Origin: Ignavibacteriaceae bacterium
GTDB lineage: Bacteria; Bacteroidota; Ignavibacteria; Ignavibacteriales; Ignavibacteriaceae
DNA: 35,147 nt
Direction: 5' to 3'
Assembly: GCA_035293265.1 (NCBI GenBank)
Contig: DATDOL010000107.1
Coordinates: forward strand, 1-35,147
Shown: one piece after another, positions 15,641 to 35,147 of the stretch
How positions within the stretch are numbered: position 1 is the first letter of the stretch
Layout: each line of letters begins with the position of its first letter
Translations under genes and position numbers: made by a program
The notes under the pieces: generated by a model
The model's input: only the letters and a program-made list of their open reading frames with translations
What the model was told of the DNA's origin: nothing
Database searches by the model: none

Positions 15641-15677
15641 ATTATATTGAATAATTATTTAGTGTAGATTTATTGAA

Positions 15678-18179: not shown

Positions 18180-18330
18180 TTATTTCCGCTAGTTATTTGA
18201 CAAAAATTTGGGAATCAATTTAAGCTTGTGAATAGTTAATACAAAATGATTAGAAAATGAAAAGTCCGATAATCTACCTGCTCATTCCGTATTATTTTTT
18301 TAATTAACCAAGTGCACTGCCCTGAACATT

Positions 18331-19434: not shown

Positions 19435-19554
19435 TTACTTTTATTCGCAAGTAAAAAAAATAAGCATAAATGAAATAGTAATGATTTTCTCAACTAACTT
19501 TTGAATGACGAGAGAAAATATTTTAATACTCTGGCGGAAATCAAATATTTATTA

Positions 19555-21066
19555 TTAAGAAGTGATTTTTTCCAGCAGTGAAATTAAATCTTTTTTAGCA
19601 AAAGGTTTTACTAAAAATTCATCTGCGCCGGCTCTATAAAATTGCTGAATCTTATCCCGCATAAATTCACTTGATATTATCAGCAAAGGAATTTTTACAG
19701 CATTATCAGTCTTAAGTCTTTTACAAAGGTCAATCCCCTTATCCCAATAATTCTTTGTGATATCCATTATAATAACTCTAAAGTTATCCTCACCAACAAC
19801 TTTAGAATCAAATCCTCTGTAATTATATACTTTTATCTGATAGCTGCCTTTAAGAAAGGCCTTTAATAATTCGAAAGACTCTCCTGTATCATCAAGCATT
19901 AATATTTTAGCAGCACCATTTGCTTCAACAGTATATTTTTCTTTAATCAAAACACTCTTTTTAGACAGCGGCAATGTAAAAGTAAAAGTTGTTCCGACAC
20001 TCTTTATGCTGTCAACAAGCAATGATCCACCCATTTTTTCGATATATCTTTTAGCTAAAGCCAATCCCAAACCATTGCCTTCAAAATTTCTTCCAACATC
20101 CAGATTTTCCTGGCTGAATGGACGATAAAGATGATCAAGGTATTCGGTTGAAATCCCGATCCCTGTATCCTTAACTTTACAAACAGCGAGGTCTCTCTCC
20201 TTTAGCAACCCGACTTCAACATCTATAAAACCCTGCTGGGTAAACTTGACTGCATTATCCAATAAATTATTAATCACATTTTCGGTGCACTGTAAATCTA
20301 TTTCAACAAGCATACTATCAGCTTCAAAACTTGTTTTAAAGTCCAATTTTTTTTCTGCTGCAATTTTTTTATACGGTGCGACGCAATGATTAAATACATT
20401 TATCAGATCATAGCTTTCAATATTTAACTGGTAATTACCGGCTTCAATCTGGGCAAACTCAAGCATTTGGGTAATACTTTTAAACAACCTTTCGCTGCCT
20501 GAATAAAGATTGTCAAGGTAAACTTTTTCTTCATTGCTGATTCTATCTTTCAGATTTTCCTTAATAATAGTTGCGTATCCGAGAATAATATTAAGCGGAG
20601 TTCGCAGTTCATGTGACAGCACATTCAGAAATGTACTTTTTAATCTTTCGGCTTCTTTACTGGCATCACGGGATTTCTGAATTTCATTTTCTGCAAGTAT
20701 CATTTCTGTATGATCTTCATGCAGAAGTACAGCGTAATTTTTGTTTTGATACATTAACGGGAAAATGCTCGTTCTAAGCAACGGTACTGCGGCTTCTCGA
20801 TTAACAAGAAGACTATCACTGTAATTGTTTATCGAAGCATAGGTTTTATTTTCCAGAGTATCCGTGATTGATTGTATAATTCCATTTCGTCGCAACTCTG
20901 GATCTTTAAAAATAACATATTCCTGGAGTTCTGTCATTGAATAGCCCCACTGAACAATAAATTCGTTATTGATGTAAACTATATAACCTTTTTCATCAAT
21001 GATTTGAACAGGGAACCGCAGTGAGTCGTAAAGCAGTTTAAAATATTTATCAATAGTATCTGACAT
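19555..21066 (-). CDS. Hybrid sensor histidine kinase (PAS, HisKA, HATPase_c, receiver)
   Basis: H-box LSHELRTPLN, N-box NLLDNAVKF, G-boxes DTGIGIS and GNGLGLALAKRY. The C-terminal receiver has LMLDD, IIMDI and KPF. Confidence 0.9.
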   Translation of the reverse strand: MSDTIDKYFKLLYDSLRFPVQIIDEKGYIVYINNEFIVQWGYSMTELQEYVIFKDPELRRNGIIQSITDTLENKTYASINNYSDSLLVNREAAVPLLRTSIFPLMYQNKNYAVLLHEDHTEMILAENEIQKSRDASKEAERLKSTFLNVLSHELRTPLNIILGYATIIKENLKDRISNEEKVYLDNLYSGSERLFKSITQMLEFAQIEAGNYQLNIESYDLINVFNHCVAPYKKIAAEKKLDFKTSFEADSMLVEIDLQCTENVINNLLDNAVKFTQQGFIDVEVGLLKERDLAVCKVKDTGIGISTEYLDHLYRPFSQENLDVGRNFEGNGLGLALAKRYIEKMGGSLLVDSIKSVGTTFTFTLPLSKKSVLIKEKYTVEANGAAKILMLDDTGESFELLKAFLKGSYQIKVYNYRGFDSKVVGEDNFRVIIMDITKNYWDKGIDLCKRLKTDNAVKIPLLIISSEFMRDKIQQFYRAGADEFLVKPFAKKDLISLLEKITS

Positions 21067-21068
21067 TT

Positions 21069-22385
21069 CTAATTCACAGGTAATGAAAATTGAATCGATG
21101 TTCCGTTATTACTTTTCAATAATACAATCTCACCGTTATGACGATCGATAATGCTCTTACAAAGAAACAGACCATAACCACCTTTATGCAAACCAAATGT
21201 ATCAAATGAACCGGCATTAATATGTTTGGGTAAACCAGGACCGTCATCCGACATAATTACACAAATTTTATTGTCTTTTTCAAATGACTTTATAAACATC
21301 GTCACGTCTTTTTTTGCCTCTGCAGAATTTGTAATAAGAAGAACTATCAAATGCTGAATTTGTTCTGAATCATAATCGCACAGCGGTAATGCATTTAATT
21401 CTGTTTTAAAGATAATCGAGCTGTATTTTTTCATAGGAGAAAGATATTTAATGACAGATTGAATTGTTCTATTTAAATCCCCGCTGTCTTTGTTAAGATT
21501 CATAATGGAAGTTTCCAACAGCACCTGCGCATATTTCTGTATGCTGCGGATGCTATCGACAGCAACTTTAGACTTTAGCTTGAGACGGTCAAAAATCAGT
21601 GATTCGGGTGCATCTGTTGTGTCATCAAATTCTAACTGAGTTTTTTCAATCATCCTTAATAAACTTTCTGTTTCAAGAAGTGCAAGATGTACAAGTCCTT
21701 GTAATGATTTTCCAATCTCTGCATCAATGCTGGATTTTAATGTTTTTCTTTCTGCTTCTATCAACTGGGCATTGGCTTCCTGCAAAGCATTATAAGCGGC
21801 TATCTGTCCATCATAAAGTTGTGCATTACGAATTGCTGAAGCTGCCTGCCCGGCTAAAATTTCAAAAGTACCTGTTATTTCCCTGACTTTAACTTTTTGA
21901 AGATGTTTGCTATCGACGTAAATAACACCGATCTTTTTTTCATTGGTTATCAGCGGTGAGCAAAGAATTGTTTGCAGATCTAACTGAAGAATACTTTTTG
22001 TAGGATCGTTGGCTGAATCACTTTGTGCGCCTTCAATAAAAATTGATTGCCCGTTTAAGAAAACGTCTTCTACAACAGTGTTGCTTACTAGAAAAGAACT
22101 TTCCGATAAGGAATGATTCTTAGAATCCATTCCAATTTTATATTCGAGGGTTCCGAGAGAATTTTGAAGAACAATAAATCCGCGTTCTGAGTTTGTAAGT
22201 CTTATGGCATTCTTCAGCACAAGTTCAAGTACATCTTCCAATATTAATGAGCGATTTATTGTATTAACAATATTTAGAATCGCTTCAAGATTTTTTACTC
22301 TTTCGGATGATTCATCTTCTGTGAGAATGTTTTTAATTCCATCATCAATATTCTTTTTAAATTCCGAGAACTTCACCACATTCAC
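21069..22385 (-). CDS. GAF-domain sensor kinase-like protein with HATPase_c (non-canonical dimerisation/His region)
   Basis: The N-terminal GAF-like region reads SERGFIVLQN...IGVIYVDS. The C-terminal ATPase boxes are ITNSAEA, DDGPGLP and GGYGLFLCKSII. I see no clear HExxxP H-box. It lies 2 nt upstream of the hybrid kinase gene. Confidence 0.75.
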   Translation of the reverse strand: MNVVKFSEFKKNIDDGIKNILTEDESSERVKNLEAILNIVNTINRSLILEDVLELVLKNAIRLTNSERGFIVLQNSLGTLEYKIGMDSKNHSLSESSFLVSNTVVEDVFLNGQSIFIEGAQSDSANDPTKSILQLDLQTILCSPLITNEKKIGVIYVDSKHLQKVKVREITGTFEILAGQAASAIRNAQLYDGQIAAYNALQEANAQLIEAERKTLKSSIDAEIGKSLQGLVHLALLETESLLRMIEKTQLEFDDTTDAPESLIFDRLKLKSKVAVDSIRSIQKYAQVLLETSIMNLNKDSGDLNRTIQSVIKYLSPMKKYSSIIFKTELNALPLCDYDSEQIQHLIVLLITNSAEAKKDVTMFIKSFEKDNKICVIMSDDGPGLPKHINAGSFDTFGLHKGGYGLFLCKSIIDRHNGEIVLLKSNNGTSIQFSLPVN

Positions 22386-22434: not shown

Positions 22435-25400
22435 TTAATCTTTTAATAGTTTTAAAGAGATAAACCATTCCCAATCATTCATTTTATTTGACCAGGCTTT
22501 AGCAATTCCTGCTGAGAGTGTTGACTCTAAATTATACCAGTGCTTTAATTTTAAATCCATCTGCGCACCAACATCAATCCAGTAATCTCCCAAATCAGAA
22601 CGTGTTAATAATCCTTGTGAATAAACCGAAAAATCAACATGATTAAGCAGCTGATTTGCGAGCTCAATGTTGCTAAATCTAATTGGTGGAAAAGCGTTTT
22701 CAAACAATATTTTTGCAAATTTCTTAGTCATCATGCTATAGATTGGAATCCCAGGAAATCTGAAAACTTTTCTAAACTGCTTAATTTCGTCATTATCAAT
22801 TCCTCTGTTTCCAAAACCACCAAAATAAAACCTTGCCTGGACCAATTGTTCATTATCCCAGAGATAACCACCCGCAAATTTTACGTGTAAAACGTTATGA
22901 TGTGCAATCCAGGTTGAAAAATCACTGAATTCCGCATAAGTATTTACTGCTGTTTCAAGAGAGTCAAAATTTGTACCGTATAACGTTAATGTATAGTCGA
23001 AATTTGTTCCAAACTCATAATCTGAACTTCCAATGCTTCTACGCAAATTTTTTGAATTTAGATTGGTTGCTAAAACAGAAAAATCCGGCTGAGAAACTCT
23101 AACTAAGTTATCGTTAACAAACTCAACACCTCTATAAACAGTAAGCGTTGATGATTGCTTAATCTTAAGTGGATTATCATACTTCCAGAAATGAGTGTGT
23201 CCAAGTTTATAACTTTCGCCCAGCATACCTCTTTTTCTATTATTAAATAAATCAAAGAATTCAGGTCCATTGTAGCTGACTTCTAAAAATAAAAACTGTT
23301 TAAAATCATACTTAAATTTTAAATGAAACAGCGGATAATCTGGTGTTTCTTTGAGAGGTGAGACACCCACTTCTATATTAAAATCATGAATTAATAACGG
23401 ATCACCGATACGTGTGAAAAATCCAAACACAACCTGGTTTTGAAATCCGCTGACTACCGGCACAAATGAATGAATGTTCAGGTTTGATAAAGCATTGTAT
23501 TCTTTTTCTTTGGTGTAGCCGAATGGATCGCTGGTTTCATAAGAATCAGGCAGCACCCATTTCATAACTTCCGGGTATTTATTAAGAATTTCCTGACCCA
23601 TATAATTTATTGCCGGTAAATAATCTGCCGGCTGGTTTAACAGCATAACCGGAATAAATCCATCAGTTGTATACTCAAAAGCCAGTAATGAATCACGAGA
23701 AATCTCTATTGGTTTAACAAGACCTGTGAGACAATGTGAAATTGCTTTAACGCTCGAACTTTCAAAACTGTATCTATAAATATTTGATACGCCATTTGTA
23801 AACGCGTTCCAGTAAAGGAATTTTCCATCTTCACTCCAGGATGGATTTTCAGGACTTCCGCTGCTTGTTAATGTGCTGAATTCAAAATTTCCACCAGACA
23901 ATAATTTTTTTATATTCGTTAATATTATTGACTGAAGTCCATTAGATCGATGAAACACAGCAGAAAGTTTATCCCCGGTTTGATTCACAGCCAGATTGAA
24001 AATATCATCGCCAGCTTCAAAGGAAGCGATTTGACTAACCTTGTTGTAAGGATAAGGCATAACAACCAAAGTTTTTATTCCCCCGTTAACTTCTACTCCC
24101 CAGAGGTCACGTGTTCCGGGTGAAATACTTAAATCTCCTACCCTGTAATTTTCAAATAATAATTTTTTCTCGCCGGATTGTGTATCTAGTACCCAGATAT
24201 CCCTAAACAATTGATTATTATTTGTTGTAAAGAAAAATAATCCCGTACCTGGATCGAAAGCAGTTGATGCAACCTGGATCATACTCGGTGTTGGTAATGA
24301 TTCAATATCTTTTCTTTCTTCGGACCTGAGATCAAGTTTTTGTATTGAAGCAAGCTGATGCGATTTATGGTAACCGAAAAAAATATTTTGTGTCAGAGCG
24401 TCAAAGTGAGGCTGTGTTACCCATCCAAAGGCTTGATTACCAATTCTTCTTAGCTGAGTTGTTTCAGATTTATTTAATACTTCGAGGTTTATTGATTGAA
24501 ATTCTTTTTCATGAAGTATAAAGTCTTCCCAGGCTTCATCAAAGTCCTTATTAAATACAGTTTCAAATTTATTTTTAAATCCCGGATAAGAATCGTCTGG
24601 TTCAACCTTTATCCACTTAATCAGATTTTCATAACCATATACTATGCTGAGATAACATACAAACCTTGCTCCATAAATATAAGCGAGTGTTTCAAGCAGT
24701 ATTGAATTATGACTTCCAATTGTTTCTATTTCCAGTTGAGAGGAGAAATTTTTCTTTTCAAGCATGAGTGTCCTGAAGTACATTTCATCAAAACTTCCCA
24801 ACAGTCTTCCATAACCACCGCTAAACCAGGTTTCAATAAATACTGCAAAAGATTCTTGATACCATCTTGGAGTATATCTTTTAAAATTAGTTAACAAACT
24901 ATAAACAATTGTTGTCGGCTGAATTTTCTCAGGAGGAACTTTCCCAAAAATTTTACGCAGAAATGCTTCCACTCCGGTAGAATGATCGTTCACAACAATA
25001 TGTACAAGTTCATGACTTAGTAGCCATTGAATTCTGTCATTATAAGGAACAATTTCGTAACCTGGTTCAAGAGGCTCTATTTCTAAACGAATAAAGTTCT
25101 GAGGAACAGTTGTTATGCTGCCAAAGCCAAAATCGTTTACATCATAAGTATTGATAATAATTTTTTCTTTCGGTTTATAATCAAACAAATTCATAAGAGG
25201 TTTTAAAGCATTCTCAGCGTCGCTCAAAATCTTATTAATCAGGTATGCATGATTTTCTCTGTAAACTATTTTAAAATGTTCACTTTCACGTTCATACCAA
25301 TCGGAATCTGTTCGTTCAAAAAAGTGAATTCTAATTTCCTCTTTGCTGGCAGAATTTAACAATTCAACTGCAACTTTTTCAGAAATATTTTTTAAATAGA

Positions 25401-26064
25401 TTTCTACGTTTCCCTGGTCATTATAAACCAGTATATCTTCAATTAATCCTTTTGGCTTCAGATCAGCAAATTCTTTTGATATTACATTCGAATTCATTAT
25501 TCTAAGAATAAAAATACCTCCGCCGGTATTTGCAAGACGAATGTTGATTTGTTCCTTTGTTTTTAAATACAAATATGTATCGTTTTCCAATTCACCAATT
25601 TTTATCTGCATGACTGAATTCACCCCGGGAATTTCATCAGCGAGAGATATTTTATTAGGACTTAAGATAATTATTGCTCTATGATATGCAAGACTAAAAA
25701 GTTCAACAGCTTCATTCATCGACACAAAAATCAATTTATCCATTAAATGGGAAGATCTTTTTAACTGATGAGAAATGAATTGGTTTGTTTCTTTTGAATA
25801 AATAGTTGCAAATGGATTCCTTGAAGTAAAGGACAAAATATTATCGGGAAAATCAATTTCAATTTTTTCTGAATTGTCGGATACTGTTGATACAAGTTTA
25901 AGTGCGTCTGCAATTTTTTCAACAGCTATGTAAATTGTTCCGTTAAAATTATAAGCTAGTATTTGAAATGAATTGTTTTTTATTGTGAATGTTACGCTGG
26001 AAATTGTTTGTGCAGTTAAAAATGCATTCAAGAGAGTGAGGAATAGGAGTGTGTTTTTTAGCAT
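22435..26064 (-). CDS. Large secreted protein: signal peptide, peptidase-MA-like HExxH domain, PD40/TolB-like beta-propeller repeats, putative C-terminal beta-barrel
   Basis: 1209 aa. Signal peptide MLKNTLLFLTLLNAFLTAQ. It has SEHFKIVY, then HELVH (25000-25014), then a downstream WYQESFAVFIETW (gluzincin-like third ligand). PD40-like repeats include SPENPSWSEDGKFLYW...SNIYRY. The C-terminal ~350 aa has an alternating beta-strand pattern with FYFGGFGNRG. Confidence 0.7.
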   Translation of the reverse strand: MLKNTLLFLTLLNAFLTAQTISSVTFTIKNNSFQILAYNFNGTIYIAVEKIADALKLVSTVSDNSEKIEIDFPDNILSFTSRNPFATIYSKETNQFISHQLKRSSHLMDKLIFVSMNEAVELFSLAYHRAIIILSPNKISLADEIPGVNSVMQIKIGELENDTYLYLKTKEQINIRLANTGGGIFILRIMNSNVISKEFADLKPKGLIEDILVYNDQGNVEIYLKNISEKVAVELLNSASKEEIRIHFFERTDSDWYERESEHFKIVYRENHAYLINKILSDAENALKPLMNLFDYKPKEKIIINTYDVNDFGFGSITTVPQNFIRLEIEPLEPGYEIVPYNDRIQWLLSHELVHIVVNDHSTGVEAFLRKIFGKVPPEKIQPTTIVYSLLTNFKRYTPRWYQESFAVFIETWFSGGYGRLLGSFDEMYFRTLMLEKKNFSSQLEIETIGSHNSILLETLAYIYGARFVCYLSIVYGYENLIKWIKVEPDDSYPGFKNKFETVFNKDFDEAWEDFILHEKEFQSINLEVLNKSETTQLRRIGNQAFGWVTQPHFDALTQNIFFGYHKSHQLASIQKLDLRSEERKDIESLPTPSMIQVASTAFDPGTGLFFFTTNNNQLFRDIWVLDTQSGEKKLLFENYRVGDLSISPGTRDLWGVEVNGGIKTLVVMPYPYNKVSQIASFEAGDDIFNLAVNQTGDKLSAVFHRSNGLQSIILTNIKKLLSGGNFEFSTLTSSGSPENPSWSEDGKFLYWNAFTNGVSNIYRYSFESSSVKAISHCLTGLVKPIEISRDSLLAFEYTTDGFIPVMLLNQPADYLPAINYMGQEILNKYPEVMKWVLPDSYETSDPFGYTKEKEYNALSNLNIHSFVPVVSGFQNQVVFGFFTRIGDPLLIHDFNIEVGVSPLKETPDYPLFHLKFKYDFKQFLFLEVSYNGPEFFDLFNNRKRGMLGESYKLGHTHFWKYDNPLKIKQSSTLTVYRGVEFVNDNLVRVSQPDFSVLATNLNSKNLRRSIGSSDYEFGTNFDYTLTLYGTNFDSLETAVNTYAEFSDFSTWIAHHNVLHVKFAGGYLWDNEQLVQARFYFGGFGNRGIDNDEIKQFRKVFRFPGIPIYSMMTKKFAKILFENAFPPIRFSNIELANQLLNHVDFSVYSQGLLTRSDLGDYWIDVGAQMDLKLKHWYNLESTLSAGIAKAWSNKMNDWEWFISLKLLKD

Positions 26065-26159: not shown

Positions 26160-26192
26160 AAAAAAAGCCTTCAAATTAAATTTGAAGGCTTT
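26160..26192 (-). terminator. Rho-independent terminator downstream of the repeat-peptide gene
   Basis: Arms 26164-26177 (AAAGCCTTCAAATT) and 26179-26192 (AATTTGAAGGCTTT) are perfectly complementary. Read on the minus strand, the hairpin is followed by a U-run (complement of the A-run 26160-26166). Confidence 0.75.
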
Positions 26193-26231
26193 TAAAGTAG
26201 GCAATCTGGAGAACTAATTTATACCACTTTA

Positions 26232-26717
26232 TTACCGAACCCAACCATAAAGGCTGCCAAGTTCATCAAGCTGTGTCGATGATCTTACCCAACCATATAA
26301 GCTGCCAAGCTCATCAAGCTGTGTTGACGATCTTACCCAACCATAAAGGCTGCCAAGTTCCTCAAGCTGTGTCGATGATCTTACCCAACCATAACGGCTG
26401 CCAAGTTCCTCAAGCTGTGTTGATGATCTTACCCAACCATATAGGCTGCCAAGTTCCTCAAGCTGAGAAGATGCTCTCACCCAACCATAACGACTACCAA
26501 GTTCCTCTAACTGCGTATTGGAACGCTGATCGAGAACTCTGATGTCAGAATGATTTTCCTCAAGAATTGAGGTATTGTTGTGGGATTCAGTAACAGCAGT
26601 TATATTATCCTCTGAAATTCGATATCGGATTGCCTGATCTACATTGTCGGCAATCTGGGCGATTCCAGAAAAGAATAGTCCCCCACAAATAACCAGGGAT
26701 AATATAAGAAAACGCAT
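26232..26717 (-). CDS. Secreted tandem-repeat peptide precursor: signal peptide, ~60-aa unique region, then six 16-aa units SSTQL[E/D]ELGS[L/R]YGWVR
   Basis: The ORF track starts at GTG 26726, but the ATG at 26717 gives MRFLILSLVICGGLFFSGIAQ, a typical signal peptide. Six in-frame 48-nt repeats fill 26235-26522, and the stop follows the last Arg directly. A sigma-54 promoter lies upstream and a terminator downstream, both on this strand. No known family recognised. Confidence 0.75.
   Translation of the reverse strand: MRFLILSLVICGGLFFSGIAQIADNVDQAIRYRISEDNITAVTESHNNTSILEENHSDIRVLDQRSNTQLEELGSRYGWVRASSQLEELGSLYGWVRSSTQLEELGSRYGWVRSSTQLEELGSLYGWVRSSTQLDELGSLYGWVRSSTQLDELGSLYGWVR
26235..26522 (-). 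repeat. Six contiguous 48-bp tandem repeats (coding, in frame)
   Basis: Unit boundaries are 26235, 26283, 26331, 26379, 26427 and 26475. Units are near-identical with scattered substitutions that are mostly synonymous. There are no spacers between units. Confidence 0.95.
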
Positions 26718-26777
26718 AGCGCCCACTCACTTTAATTGATAATGACACACTTGAACTGCGATTACAACTCACCCGAA

Positions 26778-26795
26778 AACTGTGTGCACACAGTT
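26778..26795. promoter_or_regulatory. 18-bp perfect palindrome AACTGTGTGCACACAGTT in the predicted 5' leader of the repeat-peptide gene
   Basis: The sequence equals its own reverse complement. It lies between the sigma-54 promoter (26817-26831) and the start codon (26717). It is comparatively GC-rich for this intergenic region. Confidence 0.5.
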
Positions 26796-26816
26796 CAGTT
26801 TAAGCAGATAAAAAAC

Positions 26817-26831
26817 CCAATGTTTGTGCCA
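26817..26831 (-). promoter_or_regulatory. Sigma-54 (-24/-12) promoter candidate: TGGCAC-AAACA-TTGG
   Basis: The minus-strand sequence TGGCACAAACATTGG matches the TGGCAC-N5-TTGC consensus with correct spacing and one mismatch (final C to G). It sits ~100 nt upstream of the repeat-peptide ATG and next to a sigma-54 activator gene. Confidence 0.65.
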
Positions 26832-27038
26832 TTAGAAAAGAGATAATCAATTGAAATTTTAATCTATTTAGATGATATGTAAGGAAATAATTACCAAAAT
26901 TCTCACGTAATTATTCTAATTTGTAAAAAATAGTTACAGTTTTTTGAAATTACACTAACTATTTCATCAATAACTTAAGTGCGAAAATTTACAAAAAATG
27001 AGGGAATTTGAAATCAATTATTCGAAAAACGAAACAAG

Positions 27039-28424
27039 CTACTTCTGTTTTTCCAACAAAGTATCAAGTTTAGGTCGTGAAATGCCAAGCAATTTTGCTG
27101 TTCGTGTTTTATTTCCCTGCAGCTTTTCCAGAACTTTTTCGGCATAAAATTTCTCTAGTTTCCTCAGGTTTGTCGAGCCATAGTTCACTTCAAATTTTAC
27201 CATATGCCTGTTCTCTTCAAATTGATTTTCATCATGAATAGCTTTGATAGAAACTGATTTAATCAGATTTGAAAAATCATCAAGTGTCAATCTTCCATTA
27301 TCTGAAAGTAAAACAGCACGCTCAATCGCATTTCTTAATTCTCTAACATTTCCCGGCCACGGATATCCTAAAAGAAAATGTTTAATGTCTTTATCAACCT
27401 TCCTGATTGTTCTATTAAACTGCTTATTGAATTCTGTAATAAAATGATTAGCCAGAATGATCACGTCTTCACCACGTTCTCTCAACGGAGGTACGTCAAT
27501 AGTAACAACATTAAGTCTATGGTAAAGATCTCTTCGAAACAAATTTTCTTCCACCATTTGTTCAATATTCCTATTTGTTGCTGAAATTATTCTTGCATTG
27601 ATAGGAATATCCACCACTCCACCTAATCTTTTAATCACTTTTTTTTCAATTGCGCGCAACAGTTTTGTTTGAATATTAGGACTAAGATCACCAATTTCAT
27701 CCAGAAACAGGGTGCCTCTGTCTGCTAATTCAAACAAACCGATTTTTCTGTTCCTTGCACTAGTAAAAGCCCCGGCTTCATAGCCGAATAATTCCGATTC
27801 CAGCAAACTTTCGGGAATAGCTGTGCACACAATATCTATAAATGGAAATTGACCTGTTCTCCCATTGTTATGTATTGCTCGTGCAAAAAGTCCTTTGCCG
27901 GTGCCGGTTTCCCCAAGTAATAACACACTTGCGCCGCTTTTTTCCGAAACCTTTTTTGCAAGATCCACTACACGAACAAATTTATCCGATTCACCTATTA
28001 TGGATTTGAGACCACGTCGATTTATCCCAAATGCACCTATTCGATCGGTTTCGGTAATGTAAGATTTGTTTGAAATAACCTCGGCAAGAAATGAAGTGAA
28101 TTTGAGTATTTCGTATGGAAATATAAAAATATCATGAAATCCTTTTTTAAGAAGAGAAGTAACCTGGAGCGAGTCTCCGTTCCGCATTACAATCAAAAAT
28201 ATATTTGAATTTTCTCTCCTAGTTGCCAGAGCTTTCTTAAGAAATAATGATTCCTGTGATTCGATGTGCAGAACAATAATCTCATTATCAAAAACTTCAA
28301 AATTCTCTTCGAAGCTTACAGAGATAGGCATCCCTTTGAGTTCCAATTGCTTAAGGGCAGATGATACTGAAACTGTATCCTGTGAATCGCTAAATACTTT
28401 TATTTTAATCTGGGAATCGGACAT
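27039..28424 (-). CDS. Sigma-54-dependent transcriptional activator (bEBP, NtrC family) with degenerate N-terminal receiver-like domain
   Basis: AAA+ core: Walker A GETGTGKG, ESELFGYEAGAFTSA (GAFTGA loop, 27756-27773), Walker B LFLDEIGDL, and WPGNVRELRN. The C-terminal Fis-type HTH is TRTAKLLGISRPKL. The preferred start is ATG 28424 (MSDSQIK), 4 nt after the kinase stop. The ORF track begins at 28451. Confidence 0.9.
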   Translation of the reverse strand: MSDSQIKIKVFSDSQDTVSVSSALKQLELKGMPISVSFEENFEVFDNEIIVLHIESQESLFLKKALATRRENSNIFLIVMRNGDSLQVTSLLKKGFHDIFIFPYEILKFTSFLAEVISNKSYITETDRIGAFGINRRGLKSIIGESDKFVRVVDLAKKVSEKSGASVLLLGETGTGKGLFARAIHNNGRTGQFPFIDIVCTAIPESLLESELFGYEAGAFTSARNRKIGLFELADRGTLFLDEIGDLSPNIQTKLLRAIEKKVIKRLGGVVDIPINARIISATNRNIEQMVEENLFRRDLYHRLNVVTIDVPPLRERGEDVIILANHFITEFNKQFNRTIRKVDKDIKHFLLGYPWPGNVRELRNAIERAVLLSDNGRLTLDDFSNLIKSVSIKAIHDENQFEENRHMVKFEVNYGSTNLRKLEKFYAEKVLEKLQGNKTRTAKLLGISRPKLDTLLEKQK

Positions 28425-28428
28425 ATAT

Positions 28429-31400
28429 TTAAACCGAACTGTAAGCCTCAATTTTTTCTAAGGCTAACTTAACATCCTTCTGATTTATATATGAGTTCCT
28501 TAACTGCGGAGATTGAATATTTTCTGCAATAAAATTTATCAATTCCTTTGCATAGATAAAAAAACCTTTAGCTCTGTTAAAATTTCCTCTTTCTATATAG
28601 ATATCAGATTGCATCAATAAAACCTTCCAGGTCAATTCTGTAATGCTCTCATCCTTTATTAATTCATACGCTCTTTCCAGGTATTCAATCGGTGGCGAAA
28701 GTCTTTCAGACTCATAAACCGATGCAATTTTTGCCAGAAAATATTCCCTTTGTGATTCTAATATACTGTTTTGATTAATTATTTCAATAAATACTTTGTC
28801 ATTTATTTCGTTTAACGCTTGCTCATAATTCTTTTGATCAATTAAAACTTTGATAATTGTAAAATTTACTTCGGTATACTTATTTCTTTCGTCCATCTCA
28901 ACAAAAGCGTCTCTGATTGATCTTAATCCACTCACCTCAGGAAATTTATTGTCCAGAATTTTATATAAGGCATCGATATACTTCAAGGAATATTTATGCT
29001 TTGGCAGTAAATTTTTTTCTTCGATTAATTTTCTAAATCGATCTAAGATATCTCTCATTCTATTCATACTACCAATCAGGTTATAGAAATTGCCGTAAAG
29101 GTAAAGCACTTCAGCAAGTTCTTCATCATTCTCATTCGCTTCAAAGATTTGCATCGCTTGCTGCAGGGAATTAAAAACATGCTGATACTCGCATCCTATC
29201 ATGTATACCTCAGCAAGATTGTACAAAACCAGACCCTGATTTATTTGATTACCAAGGCTTAAAAATATTTTAATTGCATTTTTGTAGTTCTCTACCGCTC
29301 TATCAAATTTCTGGTGATTATAATAATAGATTCCTGTATTTAGGAGTATCAATCCTTCCTGTTCAAGGTTTCCAATAGATTCGTTTATATCCGATGCCCT
29401 GTTCCAATGTTCTTCTGCTTTTGAATGGATTCCTAAAATATTGAATATGTTTCCTACATTGACTTCAACTCCTGCAACGCGCCGTGGCAATCCTGCCTGT
29501 TTATAATTTTCAATGGCGAACATAAACTCTGTAAGAGCAGAATGAAGATCATTATTCTTATATATATAGCACATCCCAAGCAGGTTGTGACAGCGGCCTC
29601 TGAGTTCAAACGATAATTTTTTATCCTTTAAAAGTGATTTACTTATTCTCGAAGCTTCGTCATATATTTTTTGTTCAAATTCAGCATAAGCCATCTCTAC
29701 AAATATTTTATGTTTCAGGGTTACGTCGACTTTCCGTTTCAGCAATTCATTCAGCATTTTTTTAGCTTCATCAAATTTACCAACGTTAAAAAGTGAACTG
29801 CTTTTCAAAATTTGAATTTCAGTCTGAACCTTATCATCAAGATTTATTCCCTCTAAAGAATTTATAACCTCTAATGCTGATTGATAATCACTCATTTTAT
29901 AATATACATCGCAAAGTTTTATTTTAACATCGGTTTTCTTTATACCCCTGAGTGGTAATCCGGCTAAATGTTCCAATATTTTTTTCATATAAGAATATGC
30001 TGAATGTTTTTCAACATCTTCAATTTCTATGCACATCGTTTCATAACACAAATCATATTTTCCTGCAAGCTCATAATGTCTGGCTAATTCACTTCTATTA
30101 AAATATTGCAGATTTTTTTTGATTCTTTCCGCAAGCACCAGGTGAAGCCCGGTCTTATTTTTAACAGAACTGTATATATGCTTCTTAAATCCATCTGAGG
30201 TTATCAATAACGAGCTGCCTGATGTAAAATGCTGCAGAACATTATAAACCTGAAGTTTGAAAACTATATCAGAAATTTTTTGAAATGGGATGTCAAGTAG
30301 TGCTACAAGTGTGTTCATCTCAATGACAACATCCAAAGCCGAAATAATTTGAACAACTTTTAATTCTGTTTTCGAAAAATTCTTTAATCTATAATCATAA
30401 AGCACTTCATGAGAACTTTTTAATACCCGTATCGCTTCTTCATTTTTATTTATTTCCACTCCGGATGGAAGATGCCTGACGATCCCAAGTAATATTAAAT
30501 CCTTAATAAACGATACTATGCTGCCAGGCAATAAATCAGCGTATTTGACTATGAGATTAATCAATTCTTCCCGGGGAAAGGACGCTGAGTAACTTTGCTT
30601 TATGAATTCTGTGACCTGCACATCGGTAAACGAACTGAGTAAGACATCTCTTACATTATTAATTTCTGTTGATTTGTAACGGTTGTCAGCTGTTTCGGCG
30701 AGAATTATTTTTATGCTGTTTACCTGAAAAATTGGAATGATCGAACTAAGTATTTCAGAGGATAAATCATCAAGCAGGTTGAAGTCATCAATTAATAAAA
30801 TAAACTTAGTCTTTTTAGCAATTAAAGAAATTACCTCCGGCAGCCGAAGTACAAAGCTGGAATCGGATTCATCAGTCAAAGAATTAATTTTTGTAAGTTC
30901 TTCTGTTGAAAGAAAATCATAAACCGATTTTGAAAAAACAATTTCTTTCAAAAGGTATTTAATTAATTTTATCCCGGACTTTCCTTTTTGATTACTGACC
31001 ATAACAGAACCGGGATAAATTTCGTGTACCCTATTCAGTATTGCTGTCTTTCCAGCTCCATCAAATCCTTTTAAAGTAAAAGCCTCACTGCTTGTTTTAT
31101 CATTTATGTAAACAAATAAAATGTTGAGAACATCCGTTCGATCTGAAAATACTTTTGCGGGCAGGAAATCTTTTGTAATCGAGTCATCGACTTCAATTTC
31201 CAAATCACTTAAAACCTGTAATGCGTTTTGAAATCTATCTTCAGGGTTTTTAGCAAGAAGCTTTTTAACAACCTCAATTAGTTCATTTGAATATTTTATA
31301 GTTAGAGGAAAGTCAAATTCATTTTCTAACTTCGATTTATAGATTGCAAGTTCATCCGATGAATTAAAAGGAAACCTGTCATAAATAATCCTGTAAAGCA

Positions 31401-31995
31401 TCATCCCGAGAGAATAAAGATCAACCCTGTGATCATGTTCTTCCTTCTTCAGCAGTTCGGGAGCGATATACTGTGCAGTACCTTTGACATCATTTTTAAG
31501 CTCTTCACTTCCAAGCTGTGCAAATCCAAGATCAATTAATTTAATGACCGGGTTTCCACCGGGGTTTGCGACCAGAATATTTTCGGGTTTCAGATCATAG
31601 TAGATGTAATTTGATTGATGAAGATAATACAAGACTGAGCATATTTGATTTAGTATTATTTTTAATGATAATTCATTCCTTATAAAAACGGATTGAAGCA
31701 GCTCGCTTGATGGAAAATATTCAAGTGTGATGAATGGAACCCCGGATTCAACAGCATCGTTCTCGCTTTTTTCCAGAATTGTTCCAATCTCAAGAGCGCG
31801 AATGATATTCGGATGATCTAGTTTTTTTAAAGTGAAATACTCTCTCCTGAAATATTCTCTTTCAACATCATTTGCCCCGGATGATAAAACTTTTATGGCA
31901 ATTTCAGCATCCATAAACTCAGCGTCTTTACATATGTAAACAGCACTGCGGCCTTGTCCGATTTTTTTAATTATCTCATATCGTTTATTAATCAT
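28429..31995 (-). CDS. Hanks-type Ser/Thr protein kinase fused to a P-loop NTPase (STAND/AAA_16-like) and a long TPR-like helical-repeat C-terminus
   Basis: Kinase motifs: IGQGRSAVY, IAIKVL, YYDLKPENILV (31594-31602 encodes YYD), IDLGFA and YIAPE. Walker A GFDGAGKT lies at 31045-31068, followed by Walker B LLIDDFNLLD. The C-terminal ~550 aa contains repeated TPR-like helical pairs. Its ATG overlaps the OppC-like TGA (ATGA). Confidence 0.85.
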   Translation of the reverse strand: MINKRYEIIKKIGQGRSAVYICKDAEFMDAEIAIKVLSSGANDVEREYFRREYFTLKKLDHPNIIRALEIGTILEKSENDAVESGVPFITLEYFPSSELLQSVFIRNELSLKIILNQICSVLYYLHQSNYIYYDLKPENILVANPGGNPVIKLIDLGFAQLGSEELKNDVKGTAQYIAPELLKKEEHDHRVDLYSLGMMLYRIIYDRFPFNSSDELAIYKSKLENEFDFPLTIKYSNELIEVVKKLLAKNPEDRFQNALQVLSDLEIEVDDSITKDFLPAKVFSDRTDVLNILFVYINDKTSSEAFTLKGFDGAGKTAILNRVHEIYPGSVMVSNQKGKSGIKLIKYLLKEIVFSKSVYDFLSTEELTKINSLTDESDSSFVLRLPEVISLIAKKTKFILLIDDFNLLDDLSSEILSSIIPIFQVNSIKIILAETADNRYKSTEINNVRDVLLSSFTDVQVTEFIKQSYSASFPREELINLIVKYADLLPGSIVSFIKDLILLGIVRHLPSGVEINKNEEAIRVLKSSHEVLYDYRLKNFSKTELKVVQIISALDVVIEMNTLVALLDIPFQKISDIVFKLQVYNVLQHFTSGSSLLITSDGFKKHIYSSVKNKTGLHLVLAERIKKNLQYFNRSELARHYELAGKYDLCYETMCIEIEDVEKHSAYSYMKKILEHLAGLPLRGIKKTDVKIKLCDVYYKMSDYQSALEVINSLEGINLDDKVQTEIQILKSSSLFNVGKFDEAKKMLNELLKRKVDVTLKHKIFVEMAYAEFEQKIYDEASRISKSLLKDKKLSFELRGRCHNLLGMCYIYKNNDLHSALTEFMFAIENYKQAGLPRRVAGVEVNVGNIFNILGIHSKAEEHWNRASDINESIGNLEQEGLILLNTGIYYYNHQKFDRAVENYKNAIKIFLSLGNQINQGLVLYNLAEVYMIGCEYQHVFNSLQQAMQIFEANENDEELAEVLYLYGNFYNLIGSMNRMRDILDRFRKLIEEKNLLPKHKYSLKYIDALYKILDNKFPEVSGLRSIRDAFVEMDERNKYTEVNFTIIKVLIDQKNYEQALNEINDKVFIEIINQNSILESQREYFLAKIASVYESERLSPPIEYLERAYELIKDESITELTWKVLLMQSDIYIERGNFNRAKGFFIYAKELINFIAENIQSPQLRNSYINQKDVKLALEKIEAYSSV

Positions 31996-33281
31996 ATATC
32001 AAGACGCGGATTAAAAAATTTGTTTAATCTTCTTCCAAAATAATTTGCGGAAAAAAGTGTAACGACCAGACAGCCGCCCGGAAATATGATCATCCACCAG
32101 GCTTTTGTGATGTATTCCTGTCCTGACTGTATCATTGCCCCCCATGAAGGATAACTGTCTCCGGTACCTAAACCAAGATAGCTCAGAGCAGATTCTGCAA
32201 GAATAACATTGCTGAATTGAAAAATTAAATTTACAATTACGGGGGCGATGATAACGGGCAATATTTCCCTGAACAAAATTTTATTCGATTTTATTCCGAG
32301 AAGTTTTGAGGTTTGTATATAGTCTTTTTGCTTGAGGGAATTTACTTCTCCTCTTACTATCTTAAATAAACTCATCCATCCTGATATTCCCAGTACAATA
32401 ACTACAGCAAATAATGAACTTGAAAACAATGCAAGAATTAAAACAACCAGGTAAATAACTGGAAATGCCAAAAGTAATTCTGCAAACCTGTTAAGAACCA
32501 TATCAATTAAGCCTCCTTTATAACCTGCAATAAATCCCAGTGTAATACCAAGCAGAAACGAAATAAAGACCGCACCGATTCCAACTAACAAGGATATCCT
32601 TAATCCATAAACTAATCTTGTAAATGTATCTCTGCCGAATTCATCAGTACCGAGAAGAAATGTTTTGGTTGTTACCAAGGGTTCTCTATTATCTTTAATC
32701 AATTTATCGTCCGGAATTTCTTTCATAATATTTTTTTGATGATATAATATTTTATCAGATGTTATAGCACCTATACTGTCGGCGTAAATAATACTTTCAT
32801 TAAATACCTCCCTAAGAATTTTTCTTTTATAAAGCAGGAATTTATTTAAAGAGTTACCCTCAGAACTATCTTCAATTTTCAAATGCAGAACTTTAACTTT
32901 GCTTAATGGAGAAAGGTGTTTGGTTACGCTTAAATTTTTCTGAAAATCCGGGTTCCCTCTTGTAATTATTTGCGCCATTAAAAATGTTATAAGCAGAATT
33001 ATGATAACACCGGATGAAAAATTTAGATTATACTTTAAAATTTTTATCCGCCGGTGATAAACAATCATAATTAATGGAACAAGAATAAAAATTATTAAGG
33101 AAAGCAATGAATCAATAAGTTTAAAATCCAGCAGAGTTAAAGCACCATCGAAATCATTGAACAACAAAGAAAAGTATTTAAACCATAAAACTGCCAGTTC
33201 AGTCAACCTCGTAAATTGCAGTAAAATAATTAGCAGCCAAATTGCTGAAGTGAACTGCCATATTTTTAATTTAAATTTCAT
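31992..33281 (-). CDS. ABC transporter permease, OppC/DppC type, with an N-terminal extension
   Basis: LGTDEFGRDTFTRLVYGLRISL and the BPD-transporter EAA-like loop (ESALSYLGLG) are present. At 429 aa it is clearly longer than a canonical OppC, with extra hydrophobic segments at the N-terminus. Confidence 0.85.
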   Translation of the reverse strand: MKFKLKIWQFTSAIWLLIILLQFTRLTELAVLWFKYFSLLFNDFDGALTLLDFKLIDSLLSLIIFILVPLIMIVYHRRIKILKYNLNFSSGVIIILLITFLMAQIITRGNPDFQKNLSVTKHLSPLSKVKVLHLKIEDSSEGNSLNKFLLYKRKILREVFNESIIYADSIGAITSDKILYHQKNIMKEIPDDKLIKDNREPLVTTKTFLLGTDEFGRDTFTRLVYGLRISLLVGIGAVFISFLLGITLGFIAGYKGGLIDMVLNRFAELLLAFPVIYLVVLILALFSSSLFAVVIVLGISGWMSLFKIVRGEVNSLKQKDYIQTSKLLGIKSNKILFREILPVIIAPVIVNLIFQFSNVILAESALSYLGLGTGDSYPSWGAMIQSGQEYITKAWWMIIFPGGCLVVTLFSANYFGRRLNKFFNPRLDI

Positions 33282-34264
33282 ATCACATTTCCCCGAAGCA
33301 GTCTTTTATCAATTTTTAGTTTAAGAAGATCGGCAATAAAATTAGTGAGTATCATTAAAAGTCCGGCAGCAAAAGTACAGCCGATTATAAGAGGATAATC
33401 CCTGGTTAAAATTGAATCAATTGTCAGTCTTCCCATTCCCGGCAAGCTAAAAATAACTTCAGTAATAAGCGTTCCGCCTAAAAGTATTCCTAATTCAATT
33501 CCGGCAACAGAAATAAACGGACCAATTGCATTTGGAATTACATGCTTCCTAAGAATTGTGTTTTCATTTAATCCATTTGCTCTCAGCTGCACAATAAAAG
33601 TTTGGTGATAAATATCTTCCAGGTTATCCCTCAGATACCGATAAAATAAGGCGATTCCGGCTATCGATAAAGTTATCAACGGAAGAATAAGATGGTGAAT
33701 TTTATCAAGAAGTTTTTCAAAATAATTTAATGAATCATAATCGAGTGAAGTAAAACCAGAAGTTGGAAACAAATCTACCTGGACAGCAAGCAGATAAATC
33801 AGCAGAACACCAATTACAAACGCAGGTGTGCTGTAAAAAATCAGCGAGAGGTTGGAAATTAAATTATCGGTATTTTTATTTTGTTTTTGAATAGTGTAAA
33901 CAGCTAAATAATAACTCACGATAATCTGAACAAGGAAACTGATTGCGGCAATCACAAGCGTGAAGGAAAGAAATTCCCACACAACCGAAGTCACCGGCAT
34001 CCGGTAATTGTAAGATATGCCTAAATCTCCTTTAATTAAGTTAGCGACAAAGCTTAAGTACTGCTCGGGAAGCGGATCATTCAGTTTGAAGTCCTCGGCA
34101 ACTTTTTGTGCTATTTCTGGACTGAGTTCTGGTGAAATAAATTTCTGTGCCGGGTTTCCAGGAGAGATCCTTATTAAAATGAACAGCAGACTAATCAGCA
34201 AAAACAGTGTTATTAAAGAAGAGATTAATCTTTTAATAACTGCTTTACTGAATTTATTATTCAT
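33278..34264 (-). CDS. ABC transporter permease, OppB/DppB type
   Basis: 328 aa. The N-terminus is KRLISSLITLFLLISLLFILIRISPGNP. Also present are DPLPEQYLSFV..L.GDLGISY and the EAA-loop region. A 4-nt overlap joins it to the OppC-like gene. Confidence 0.9.
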   Translation of the reverse strand: MNNKFSKAVIKRLISSLITLFLLISLLFILIRISPGNPAQKFISPELSPEIAQKVAEDFKLNDPLPEQYLSFVANLIKGDLGISYNYRMPVTSVVWEFLSFTLVIAAISFLVQIIVSYYLAVYTIQKQNKNTDNLISNLSLIFYSTPAFVIGVLLIYLLAVQVDLFPTSGFTSLDYDSLNYFEKLLDKIHHLILPLITLSIAGIALFYRYLRDNLEDIYHQTFIVQLRANGLNENTILRKHVIPNAIGPFISVAGIELGILLGGTLITEVIFSLPGMGRLTIDSILTRDYPLIIGCTFAAGLLMILTNFIADLLKLKIDKRLLRGNVI

Positions 34265-34270
34265 AAATTT

Positions 34271-35147
34271 TTAATCGCTGATTTTCCATTCCCAGCAATG
34301 TGTGATTGAACCTAGTGGAGTTATGTGTATGTTTTTAATTCTTTTATTATATACTGTAATATTAGGGATCCAGTATAAAAAAGTTACCGGTTGATCATTA
34401 TGAATTATTTCCTGGAATTTAAAGTACAAATCTTTTTTTCTTTTGTCGGATATTTTTTGTTCCAATTCATTAATTATATCGTCCGCTTGTTTATTCTGAT
34501 AACTAACAAAATTCAACGGGGTCATTTCCAGGTCCGAATACCAGTAAGACTTAAGCTCAACAGGAATAGGGATATACCAGGCTGCCATCCAGGCATCCAT
34601 TTTCTTTTCATACAGGTGATCTATAAATGAACCCATTTCAAGATTAACAATTTTCATTTCTATGCCAATAGAAGCAAGATTATTTTTTATGATAGTTGAA
34701 GCATAATTTCTAAGCGGATTGCCGGACGGAAAATATAATGTAAATCTAAACTCTGTATTATTTTTATCTAAAATTCCATTATTATTGGTATCCTTCCAGT
34801 CTTCTGCTGCAAGAAGTTTTTTTGCCGTTTCGGTATTATACTGATATGCTTTTATTTCCGGGTTAAAATATCTTTTAAAAATTTTTGAAACGGGGCTAAC
34901 TGCTATCTCACCGTAATTCAGCAAATACTCTTCAAGAATTTCCTGATTGTTAATTGCATGCGAAAGTGCAATTCTGACATTTTTATTTCCGAAAAGTTTG
35001 TGCAGTATGATTTTATTTTCTTTAGTGAATAATTCCGGATCAATATTATTCCAACCGATATAATCATACTCTCTTCCCACAACTGAAACAATATTAAGCG
35101 ATTGGTTCTTTCTCATATCCTCAATGTCCTCGGTTTTAACAAGTTCC
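34271..35147 (-). CDS. ABC transporter substrate-binding protein, family 5 (peptide/nickel, OppA/DppA-like); N-terminal part lies outside the window
   Basis: The frame stays open to the window edge, upstream of Met 35116. VRIALSHAINNQEILEE, YQYNTETAKKLLAAEDWKD.NNNGILDK and the FTLYF pattern match SBP_bac_5. Confidence 0.85.
   Translation of the reverse strand, partial: ELVKTEDIEDMRKNQSLNIVSVVGREYDYIGWNNIDPELFTKENKIILHKLFGNKNVRIALSHAINNQEILEEYLLNYGEIAVSPVSKIFKRYFNPEIKAYQYNTETAKKLLAAEDWKDTNNNGILDKNNTEFRFTLYFPSGNPLRNYASTIIKNNLASIGIEMKIVNLEMGSFIDHLYEKKMDAWMAAWYIPIPVELKSYWYSDLEMTPLNFVSYQNKQADDIINELEQKISDKRKKDLYFKFQEIIHNDQPVTFLYWIPNITVYNKRIKNIHITPLGSITHCWEWKISD

Follow-up and report, generated by a model that had tools for sequence, protein, structure and literature searches.

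Import-based peptide signalling with cytoplasmic TPR receptors is, to our knowledge, known only in Gram-positive Firmicutes, their phages and plasmids, and we know of no bacterial signalling-peptide precursor that carries many tandem copies. Here we describe a gene cluster from Ignavibacteriaceae bacterium (GenBank assembly GCA_035293265.1, contig DATDOL010000107.1, positions 1 to 35,147; this whole stretch of 35,147 nucleotides (nt) is referred to below as the window). In this cluster, the genes for an Opp-type importer run into those for a Hanks-type Ser/Thr kinase of 1188 amino acids (aa) and a sigma-54 bacterial enhancer-binding protein (bEBP), followed by genes for a secreted tandem-repeat peptide precursor (PRE) and a large secreted protein (BIG). 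We propose that the module is a self-inducing peptide-signalling circuit, a reading to which we give roughly an even chance. Conservation was surveyed in one genome per species, giving 80 loci onto which the window proteins were mapped by blastp, and neighbours were counted only on contigs that extend far enough.

The closest described systems are those of the RRNPP family (Rap/Phr, NprR/NprX, PlcR/PapR, PrgX and AimR), and the RRNPP literature that we found concerned Firmicutes only. Like these systems, the proposed circuit would combine a secreted pro-peptide gene near a receptor gene with an active peptide taken from the C-terminal end, Opp-type re-import, a cytoplasmic TPR receptor, variant peptides and autoinduction; the PRE gene lies 1.7 kb downstream of the kinase gene, is multi-copy and ends in a variable heptapeptide. 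The differences are substantial, however: the receptor candidate is a Ser/Thr kinase with a STAND NTPase and a TPR region rather than an HTH regulator or phosphatase, it has no specific sequence relation to the known receptors (RapJ, E 0.003), output would run through a sigma-54 activator, the precursor holds 2–21 tandem copies, the importer genes lie in the same operon and the host is a Gram-negative bacterium of the FCB group. Membership of the kinase among RRNPP receptors was considered and rejected, its similarity being that of TPR proteins in general and neither an HTH nor a phosphatase module being present in it.

The transporter shares with Opp/Dpp importers (PepT family, including SapABCDF) a family-5 solute-binding protein (SBP) of the SBP_bac_5 type, a pair of BPD_transp_1 permeases and a pair of ABC_tran ATPases, of which one has an oligo_HPY tail. 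It departs from the canonical A-B-C-D-F operon order in that the ATPase genes are divergent and upstream while the kinase and bEBP genes follow oppC; in addition, OppC is longer by ~200 aa, and 11 of 67 species have no SBP gene at the locus. The kinase resembles STAND ATPases such as MalT and PknK, the latter from M. tuberculosis being an example that itself bears a kinase, in joining an effector domain to a putative P-loop NTPase, which has Walker A and B motifs, and to a C-terminal helical-repeat sensor. In MalT, binding of a small ligand to the sensor triggers multimerisation (PMC4381067). For the kinase described here, in contrast, a peptide encoded in the genome and then imported is the proposed ligand, a sigma-54 activator would be the partner, and the AAA_16 match is marginal.

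The bEBP resembles NtrC-family regulators (NtrC1, AtoC and LuxO) in having a receiver-like N-domain, an AAA+ sigma-54 domain and HTH_8, but it lacks the phospho-acceptor Asp together with the equivalents of Thr and Lys. A bEBP controlled by a Hanks-type kinase reportedly has a precedent in Myxococcus, which Jelsbak et al. are said to have described in PNAS in 2005; unlike the FHA-bEBPs of Myxococcus xanthus, the bEBP here has no FHA domain. The precursors of yeast alpha-factor, fungal ustiloxin and phomopsin and insect apidaecin consist of a signal peptide and tandem short peptides with conserved spacers and basic unit boundaries. PRE shares this architecture, including basic boundary residues, but is bacterial and stands in a cluster with no Kex2, radical SAM, P450 or DUF3328 gene, where the candidate processing enzyme is instead a putative outer-membrane protein with an HExxH domain and a propeller. 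Our searches of the literature on Ignavibacteria peptide signalling, RRNPP systems beyond Gram-positive bacteria, tandem precursors and kinase–bEBP links found no description of the locus, of PRE, of BIG or of the lipoprotein family described below.

A conserved importer–kinase–activator operon

The five genes from SBP to bEBP all lie on the minus strand and are packed extremely tightly (Table 1). The TAA of the SBP gene is followed after 6 nt by the ATG of OppB, OppB and OppC overlap in an ATGA, OppC and the kinase share a second ATGA at 31992–31995, and the kinase TAA lies 4 nt from the bEBP ATG. On these gene coordinates and junctions, a sequence-only reading that preceded our analysis proved exact, as judged by Pfam and by reading the junctions themselves. 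Within the operon no intrinsic terminator of note was seen, and sigma-70-like matches were no more frequent than expected by chance. The SBP frame is open through the window end, with its 5′ part outside; on contig L090, described below, the full gene encodes 553 aa.

Table 1. Features of the signalling module and its neighbours in the window, in the order in which the minus strand is read.
Feature	Position	Strand	Evidence or description
SBP_bac_5 (OppA/DppA-type) solute-binding protein gene, 3′ part	34271..35147	-	Pfam SBP_bac_5, E 2e-27
OppB-like permease, 328 aa	33278..34264	-	Pfam BPD_transp_1 and BPD_transp_1_N
OppC-like permease, 429 aa	31992..33281	-	Pfam BPD_transp_1 at residues 245-426
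Hanks-type Ser/Thr kinase with P-loop NTPase (STAND-like) and long TPR region, 1188 aa	28429..31995	-	Pfam
Sigma-54 enhancer-binding protein (bEBP), 461 aa, N-terminal pseudo-receiver	27039..28424	-	Pfam
Putative upstream activator site 1	26923..26937	-	Palindrome GTAA-N7-TTAC
Putative upstream activator site 2	26879..26894	-	GTAA-N8-TTAC, consensus GGTAAT..ATTACC
Predicted sigma-54 (-24/-12) promoter, TGGCACaaacaTTGG	26817..26831	-	TGGCAC-N5-TTGG
Perfect 18-nt palindrome (hairpin) in PRE 5′ leader	26778..26795	-	
PRE, 161-aa secreted tandem-repeat peptide precursor	26232..26717	-	Translation
Intrinsic terminator after PRE	26163..26193	-	14-bp stem and T-run
BIG, 1209-aa secreted protein	22435..26064	-	N-terminal beta domains, helical HExxH (gluzincin-like) domain, TolB-like beta-propeller, C-terminal beta-barrel
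GAF-domain histidine-kinase-like protein	21069..22385	-	Pfam GAF_2 and HATPase_c
Hybrid histidine kinase, C-terminal receiver	19555..21066	-	Pfam HisKA, HATPase_c and Response_reg

Kinase orthologs (>100, 1181–1192 aa) all came from Ignavibacteria. In almost all of the 80 species-level genomes they stand in the same arrangement: two ATPase genes pointing away, then SBP, OppB, OppC, kinase and bEBP, then PRE and BIG, and finally the GAF-domain kinase and the hybrid histidine kinase with its receiver, an order that persists down to 34% kinase identity. The gene directly preceding the kinase gene is OppC in 73 of 74 species, and the one directly following it is the bEBP in 67 of 69; the other members were found at 70/70 (OppB), 56/67 (SBP), 45/47 plus one rearranged locus (precursor gene), 36/43 (BIG), 37/40 (GAF-kinase) and 35/40 (hybrid kinase). 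OppC and the kinase overlap by 1–11 nt in 51 of 60 species, and the distance from kinase to bEBP is between −20 and +14 nt in 58 of 60. The kinase family thus co-occurs with SBP_bac_5 and OppBC genes across genomes, and the kinase and bEBP genes form a conserved, translationally coupled extension of the SBP–OppB–OppC operon. Because the pair is kept in orthologous opp operons across species, it is a fixed part of the operon, and the accidental juxtaposition that the sequence-only reading had entertained is ruled out. The cluster is also present in Ignavibacterium album, a cultivated organism (loci L062, L076 and L089). At one rearranged locus (L071:247-6032), PRE and a shorter BIG lie between the two ABC ATPase genes and not downstream of the bEBP.

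The absence of an ABC ATPase gene from its expected position, which the sequence-only reading had emphasized, holds insofar as none follows the permease genes; two ABC_tran genes nevertheless lie upstream, in divergent orientation and just outside the window. Contigs found by exact look-up of the OppC protein were short and likewise ended inside the SBP gene. An exact-protein look-up of a 99%-identical kinase homolog (P0001) led to contig L090, which is 99.3% identical to window positions 26591–35147 across 8558 nt and continues for 3086 nt beyond the window end. This extension supplies the other 785 nt of the SBP gene and then, after 84 intergenic nt, two ABC_tran genes read from the opposite strand, with oligo_HPY faintly matching one of them, and a YbaK-type deacylase gene. 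The same divergent layout occurs in relatives with 87%, 47% and 43% kinase identity and, among contigs reaching that far, in 64 of 65 species. The apparent lack of ATPase genes was therefore due to the window edge, and the idea that the kinase stands in for OppD/F in a transporter without ATPases does not survive the extension of the contig: oppD/F-like genes lie directly upstream of the SBP gene, though divergently. Because the pair is found on L090 and in relatives, the transporter is most likely a complete importer in which the gene order alone is unusual.

As to what is imported, NCBIfam models of the Opp4C, OppC, DppC and SapC type match the OppC-like protein from about residue 205, and the NikC, CntC and Opp2C models score about as high as the OppC models. 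Besides peptides, SBPs of family 5 bind nickel, opines and other ligands. Residues 1–200 of the OppC-like permease (31992–33281, minus strand) make up an extra N-terminal region with apparently three hydrophobic segments and a soluble stretch of ~100 aa; across orthologs the protein length is kept (420–430 aa), and the sequence of the extension is very divergent (mean p-distance 0.66). The loci without an SBP gene are L014, L026, L028, L031, L035, L037, L041, L051, L055, L056 and L072, with a gap of 46–234 nt between the ATPase and OppB genes, and any SBP used there must accordingly be encoded elsewhere.

Pfam assigns the kinase a Pkinase domain (E 6e-44) and TPR_12, which together with other TPR models covers residues 694–1065, while the AAA_16 match is marginal (32.5 bits, just under the cut-off of 32.6). 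The motifs AxK, YYDLKPEN, DLG and APE and the Walker A and B motifs are conserved among 69 orthologs, with K35, D134, N139, D155 and the APE invariant; the P-loop GxxGxGK(T/S) and the hhhhDD motif are likewise conserved. The kinase has no membrane segment, and its layout of effector, P-loop NTPase and TPR sensor would be of the STAND type.

The bEBP matches Sigma54_activat (E 2e-62), AAA_lid_14 and HTH_8, and its GAFTxA loop is conserved (68 orthologs). Over its first 135 residues it can be aligned, in register, to the NtrC1, AtoC and LuxO receivers. Equivalents of Asp54, Thr82 and Lys104 are absent from all 69 of 69 orthologs, in an alignment whose NtrC reference sequence was entered by hand. 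Conserved serines near positions 12, 21–22 and 59 of this N-domain are candidate phosphorylation sites. Since the phospho-acceptor Asp is lacking, the N-domain cannot act as a classical two-component receiver; because this Asp-less receiver is encoded on the same mRNA as a Ser/Thr kinase, we consider it a natural candidate substrate of that kinase.

The putative peptide precursor PRE and its predicted sigma-54 promoter

The sequence-only reading took the module to extend from position 28424 and overlooked the promoter, the peptide precursor and BIG, which lie just beyond. PRE consists of a signal peptide, a leader with the sequence AIRYRI, whose motif (V/A)xRYR is conserved among orthologs, and six tandem units of 16 aa (26235–26522; period 48 and 5.6 copies in Tandem Repeats Finder). 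Each unit comprises S-x-S-Q-L-(D/E)-E-L-G followed by a heptapeptide, which in the window is SRYGWVR or SLYGWVR. Orthologs from at least 40 species contain 2–21 units, and the C-terminus of the protein always coincides with an exact unit end. High unit counts came from long-read assemblies (12–21 units in other species). Two short-read contigs of the window's population (L001 and L090) break off inside the PRE repeat (window 26235–26522), so the six units of the window may undercount the true number.

Conservation within the unit is sharply divided. Positions S1, Q4, L8 and G9 are invariant among 52 species, while the heptapeptide takes 44 forms in the same 52 species (for example, SRYGWVR, SRYIFVR, SRYSFVK, GRWGWTK and SRYAFAH) and is uniform within each genome. 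Adjacent units of the same genome differ by 753 synonymous versus 170 non-synonymous codon differences, and at Q4, L8 and G9 by 179 versus 1. Near-identical peptides encoded by differing DNA indicate that each unit is kept by selection on the peptide and not by recent duplication alone. Insertions, present in some units, are placed after ELG and before the heptapeptide (for example, ELGEDLDGRFGWSR), a position which marks the latter as a functional part of its own.

PRE matches no Pfam or NCBIfam family, and all 90 homologs found with a word index come from Ignavibacteria and are annotated as hypothetical. When 1.84 billion representatives were searched exhaustively, ~70 small relatives emerged, one of them divergent with ELGPFGWNQN units; two long proteins from this search (P0334 and P0366) were set aside as unrelated repeat proteins. 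From the same search, a divergent relative of 299 aa (P0335) has the leader VEKAVRYR, as in PRE, and mixed units such as LKELGPFGWNQN and LNELGGFHWEQS, from which it appears that some lineages may encode several different peptides in one precursor. Repeated core peptides within one precursor, as seen in PRE, also raised the possibility of a ribosomally made and post-translationally modified peptide (RiPP). No tailoring enzyme gene was found among the conserved neighbours, which are the transporter, the kinase, the bEBP, BIG, the two histidine kinases and housekeeping genes, and this assignment was rejected.

Upstream of PRE, in the 312-nt gap that follows the bEBP gene, lies the only match to TGGCAC-N5-TTG(C/G) in the window (0.08 expected). 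In related loci the pattern TGGCA[CT]N5TTG gave 68 matches in 2.93 million strand-bases, of which 52 fell within 300 nt upstream of a PRE gene. The last base of the −12 element differs between species (C, G, T or A), and a strict pattern ending in TTG[C/G/T] passed over 18 loci; most of these have TTGA or near variants, and two are loci without a bEBP that have a sigma-70-type promoter. The palindrome GTAA-N7-TTAC (site 1) recurs 105–109 nt upstream of the promoter TGGCA in ~52 of 60 promoters, and site 2 corresponds to a conserved block ~63 nt upstream of TGGCA in an alignment of promoters from 52 loci. At the sequence level, these motifs make a strong case that PRE has a bEBP/sigma-54-dependent promoter. 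In the two species without a bEBP (L055 and L056), TTGACA-N17-TATATT replaces the sigma-54 motif before PRE. The adjacency of the bEBP gene, together with this joint loss of bEBP and sigma-54 motif, suggests that the neighbouring bEBP is the activator of the PRE promoter.

In these two species PRE directly follows the kinase gene, and a remnant of the upstream palindrome is still there (L055:13558-14261 and L056:13564-14180). A second match to TGGCA[CT]N5TTG in the window, at ~5827 on the minus strand, lies in the 3′ part of the IleRS gene with no upstream palindrome; we considered it as a promoter and took it to be a chance occurrence. In the PRE 5′ leader, other species have a hairpin of different sequence at the position of the window's 18-nt palindrome, with the stem kept (promoter alignment). 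This hairpin, which has no Rfam match, could be an mRNA-stabilising or regulatory 5′ structure. Conserved blocks GTGTGTCAT and GTGGGnGCTATG follow it.

A second precursor type and a candidate processing enzyme

Some species encode a second type of precursor, a lipoprotein of ~185 aa that ends in HFS(R/I)Y(G/N/T)(W/F)x(K/R/T). A sigma-54 motif is found upstream of this tailed lipoprotein, directly so in most such loci. In genomes with both precursors, the lipoprotein tail co-varies with the PRE heptapeptide: SIYGWCR and SIYGWTR in L052, SRYGFIT and SRYGFAT in L049, and SRYTWAK and SMYSWAK in L032 (tail and heptapeptide, respectively). A regular expression for the C-terminal motif matched 53 of 5163 open reading frames in the 80 loci, and 52 of the 53 were PRE or the tailed lipoprotein. 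A motif confined almost wholly to two precursor types points to the heptapeptide as a shared, recognised element.

The lipoprotein family, with a GCSD lipobox and the conserved tail PHFSRYGWAK, is unannotated. Its loci include L032:15325-15885, L054 (four copies, 15265-20849), L064:15137-16874 and L073:10316-10900, the last with a 404-aa TPR protein after the lipoprotein gene. Some genomes have several tandem copies, and the sigma-54 motif precedes some of them, though not all four in L054.

Downstream of PRE and its terminator, BIG gave nothing in sequence searches (Pfam, NCBIfam and PDB) except one PD40 repeat, and no Pfam peptidase model matches it. Its HExxH and downstream glutamates are nonetheless invariant among 33 orthologs (H333, E334, H337, E386 and E393 in mature numbering), as part of the motif RWxQEAxAVFxETW. 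An AlphaFold2 model (pLDDT 80, pTM 0.73) shows the four parts given in Table 1, with HExxH in the helical domain and long antiparallel strands forming the C-terminal barrel. Foldseek matches to the full model were dominated by the propeller (TolB, E 2e-9). When the HExxH domain was modelled alone, M1/M61 gluzincin peptidases (among them IRAP, ERAP1, tricorn factor F3, APN and LTA4H) made up nearly all of the top ~45 matches, which were weak. BIG is missing in the four loci that have no PRE at all and lie on contigs that are long enough (L054, L073, L074 and L080). We read BIG as a putative outer-membrane-anchored peptidase that would process or trim the PRE polyprotein.

Beyond BIG, the GAF-kinase has an HATPase_c domain but no detectable HisKA, and the hybrid HisKA–HATPase–receiver kinase is always next to it. 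Rfam and tRNA scans of the window found nothing. Elsewhere in it, two tandem signal peptidase II genes (Peptidase_A8, LspA) lie at 3446–4141 and 4141–4722 on the minus strand, the stop of one abutting the start of the other.

The proposed circuit and competing explanations

In the circuit that we propose, the bEBP would bind the two palindromic sites and activate the sigma-54 promoter of PRE. PRE would be exported via its Sec signal peptide and then cut into many copies of a short peptide, with the C-terminal heptapeptide, here S(R/L)YGWVR, as the species-specific part, the invariant SxSQL(D/E)ELG as a spacer or processing site, and BIG as the likely processing or trimming enzyme. As judged from family membership, the SBP would bind the peptide and OppB/OppC would import it, powered by the two divergently encoded ATPases. 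Once in the cytoplasm, the peptide would bind the TPR region of the STAND-type kinase and switch it on, by analogy with MalT and the RRNPP receptors. The kinase may then phosphorylate the Asp-less pseudo-receiver of the co-translated bEBP, which would raise PRE transcription further and close a positive feedback loop.

As an exploratory analysis, we compared heptapeptide Hamming distances with domain p-distances in 40 species by partial Mantel tests, using the mean distance of conserved domains as a proxy for phylogeny. The heptapeptide was correlated with the kinase TPR region (partial r 0.20, p 0.001), the SBP (0.20, p 0.007), the bEBP AAA+ domain (0.17, p 0.013) and the OppC core (0.13, p 0.036), and partial r was near zero or negative in the kinase domain and NTPase, in OppB and both ATPases, in the bEBP N-domain and in the two histidine kinases. 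This ranking lends weak support to the SBP and the kinase TPR region as the parts that contact the peptide.

Several observations weigh against the proposed circuit. Its biochemical steps, namely peptide release, import, TPR binding and bEBP phosphorylation, are all predictions, and the Mantel effects are small and inflated by shared ancestry. Searched against the PDB, the C-terminal 900 residues of the kinase matched generic TPR proteins only, with RapJ ranked below Pins/LGN. The SBP gene is not at the locus in the 11 species listed above, and the two species that keep the kinase without the bEBP imply that the kinase has at least one other partner. The model of the isolated HExxH domain of BIG is of low confidence (pLDDT 66), and its fold matches are weak (E 4e-4 to 0.1, TM ~0.3). 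The circuit assigns no part to the two conserved histidine kinases. Finally, most heptapeptides are rich in Arg/Lys and Trp/Tyr/Phe, as antimicrobial peptides would be.

This composition fits a different reading, in which PRE is an antimicrobial peptide polyprotein: short cationic aromatic peptides would act against competitors while import protects the producer, the anionic SQLEELG spacer would neutralise the core, and an Opp/Sap-like importer would clear the producer's periplasm and may report the peptide level to the kinase and bEBP, giving autoinduction. Tandem multi-copy antimicrobial precursors with acidic spacers are found in eukaryotes (apidaecin and Ib-AMP). Positions 11 and 16 of the unit are each R or K in 46 of 52 species, with aromatics at 12 and 14, the OppC-like protein also matches the SapC model, and species-specific diversification is typical of toxin/immunity systems. 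We nonetheless consider an antimicrobial role unlikely, given that several cores carry little or no positive charge (SEYGYSK, GEGIFLK, SRYGWAT and SRYAFAH), that a peptide of only 6–7 residues and +2 charge would be expected to act weakly on membranes, that the cluster holds no dedicated exporter or immunity gene, and that the module is fixed in the chromosome class-wide and is not a variable accessory island. The motif's position at the very C-terminal end of a folded ~185-aa lipoprotein, as well as in PRE, could instead mean that both are cell-surface or periplasmic proteins and that S-R-Y-G-W-x-K/R is a tag for sorting, anchoring or degradation, read by BIG, whose TolB-like propeller and barrel are typical of envelope machinery. 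The kinase and bEBP would then sense ordinary Opp-imported peptides, which would reflect nutrient or cell-wall status, and alter the composition of the envelope accordingly, and I. album does require external peptides and amino acids (PMC3362086). Past its signal peptide and leader, however, PRE is nothing but up to 21 repeats of the tag and carries no cargo domain; one would expect a sorting tag not to change between species, but this one takes 44 forms in 52 species and co-varies between two precursor types; and lipoprotein-only loci without BIG mean that BIG cannot be the general reader, which makes the tag explanation improbable as well.

The remaining readings concern the operon rather than the peptide. 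According to the sequence-only reading, the SBP and permeases would act as a sensor or stoichiometric partner of the kinase instead of pairing with ATPases, that is, as a transceptor without transport. The conserved translational coupling of OppC to the kinase and the conserved ~200-aa N-terminal extension on OppC agree with this, but two ABC ATPase genes stand beside the SBP gene in the same 64 of 65 species as well as in the population from which the window comes, and the kinase has no membrane segment and possesses a large TPR sensor region of its own; we regard a transceptor as very unlikely. That this is an ordinary nutritional opp operon, with unrelated regulators beside it by chance, hardly seems credible, since order, overlaps, promoter and precursor are kept together across ~70 species and down to 34% kinase identity, even though the I. 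album genome paper cites the oligopeptide transporter solely for amino-acid needs (PMC3362086). A role in anti-phage defence was also considered and rejected: PADLOC gave only generic matches to kinase-domain and AAA+ cores, and the locus is syntenic class-wide.

The self-inducing circuit, if it operates as proposed, would be import-based peptide signalling in a phylum new to it, with a new set of components. Whether it is the first import-and-sense peptide communication outside Firmicutes, with a pheromone polyprotein of up to 21 copies that resembles the precursors of yeast alpha-factor or neuropeptides, an outer-membrane metallopeptidase, Opp re-import, a STAND kinase, an Asp-less receiver and sigma-54, is a claim that we hold tentatively and rate somewhat short of an even bet; this novelty depends on the predicted function of the circuit. 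Peptide quorum sensing would then reach the FCB group, and a Hanks-type/STAND kinase would be tied to sigma-54 control via an Asp-less receiver. The 44 heptapeptide forms in 52 species would constitute a natural library of orthogonal signal–receptor pairs for studies of specificity, and the class-wide 1188-aa kinase would gain candidates for both its ligand and its substrate. If the functional reading is set aside, three unannotated families (PRE, the tailed lipoprotein and BIG) are still documented here in a clear regulatory context, and the presence of the cluster in the cultivated I. album opens the circuit to direct testing.

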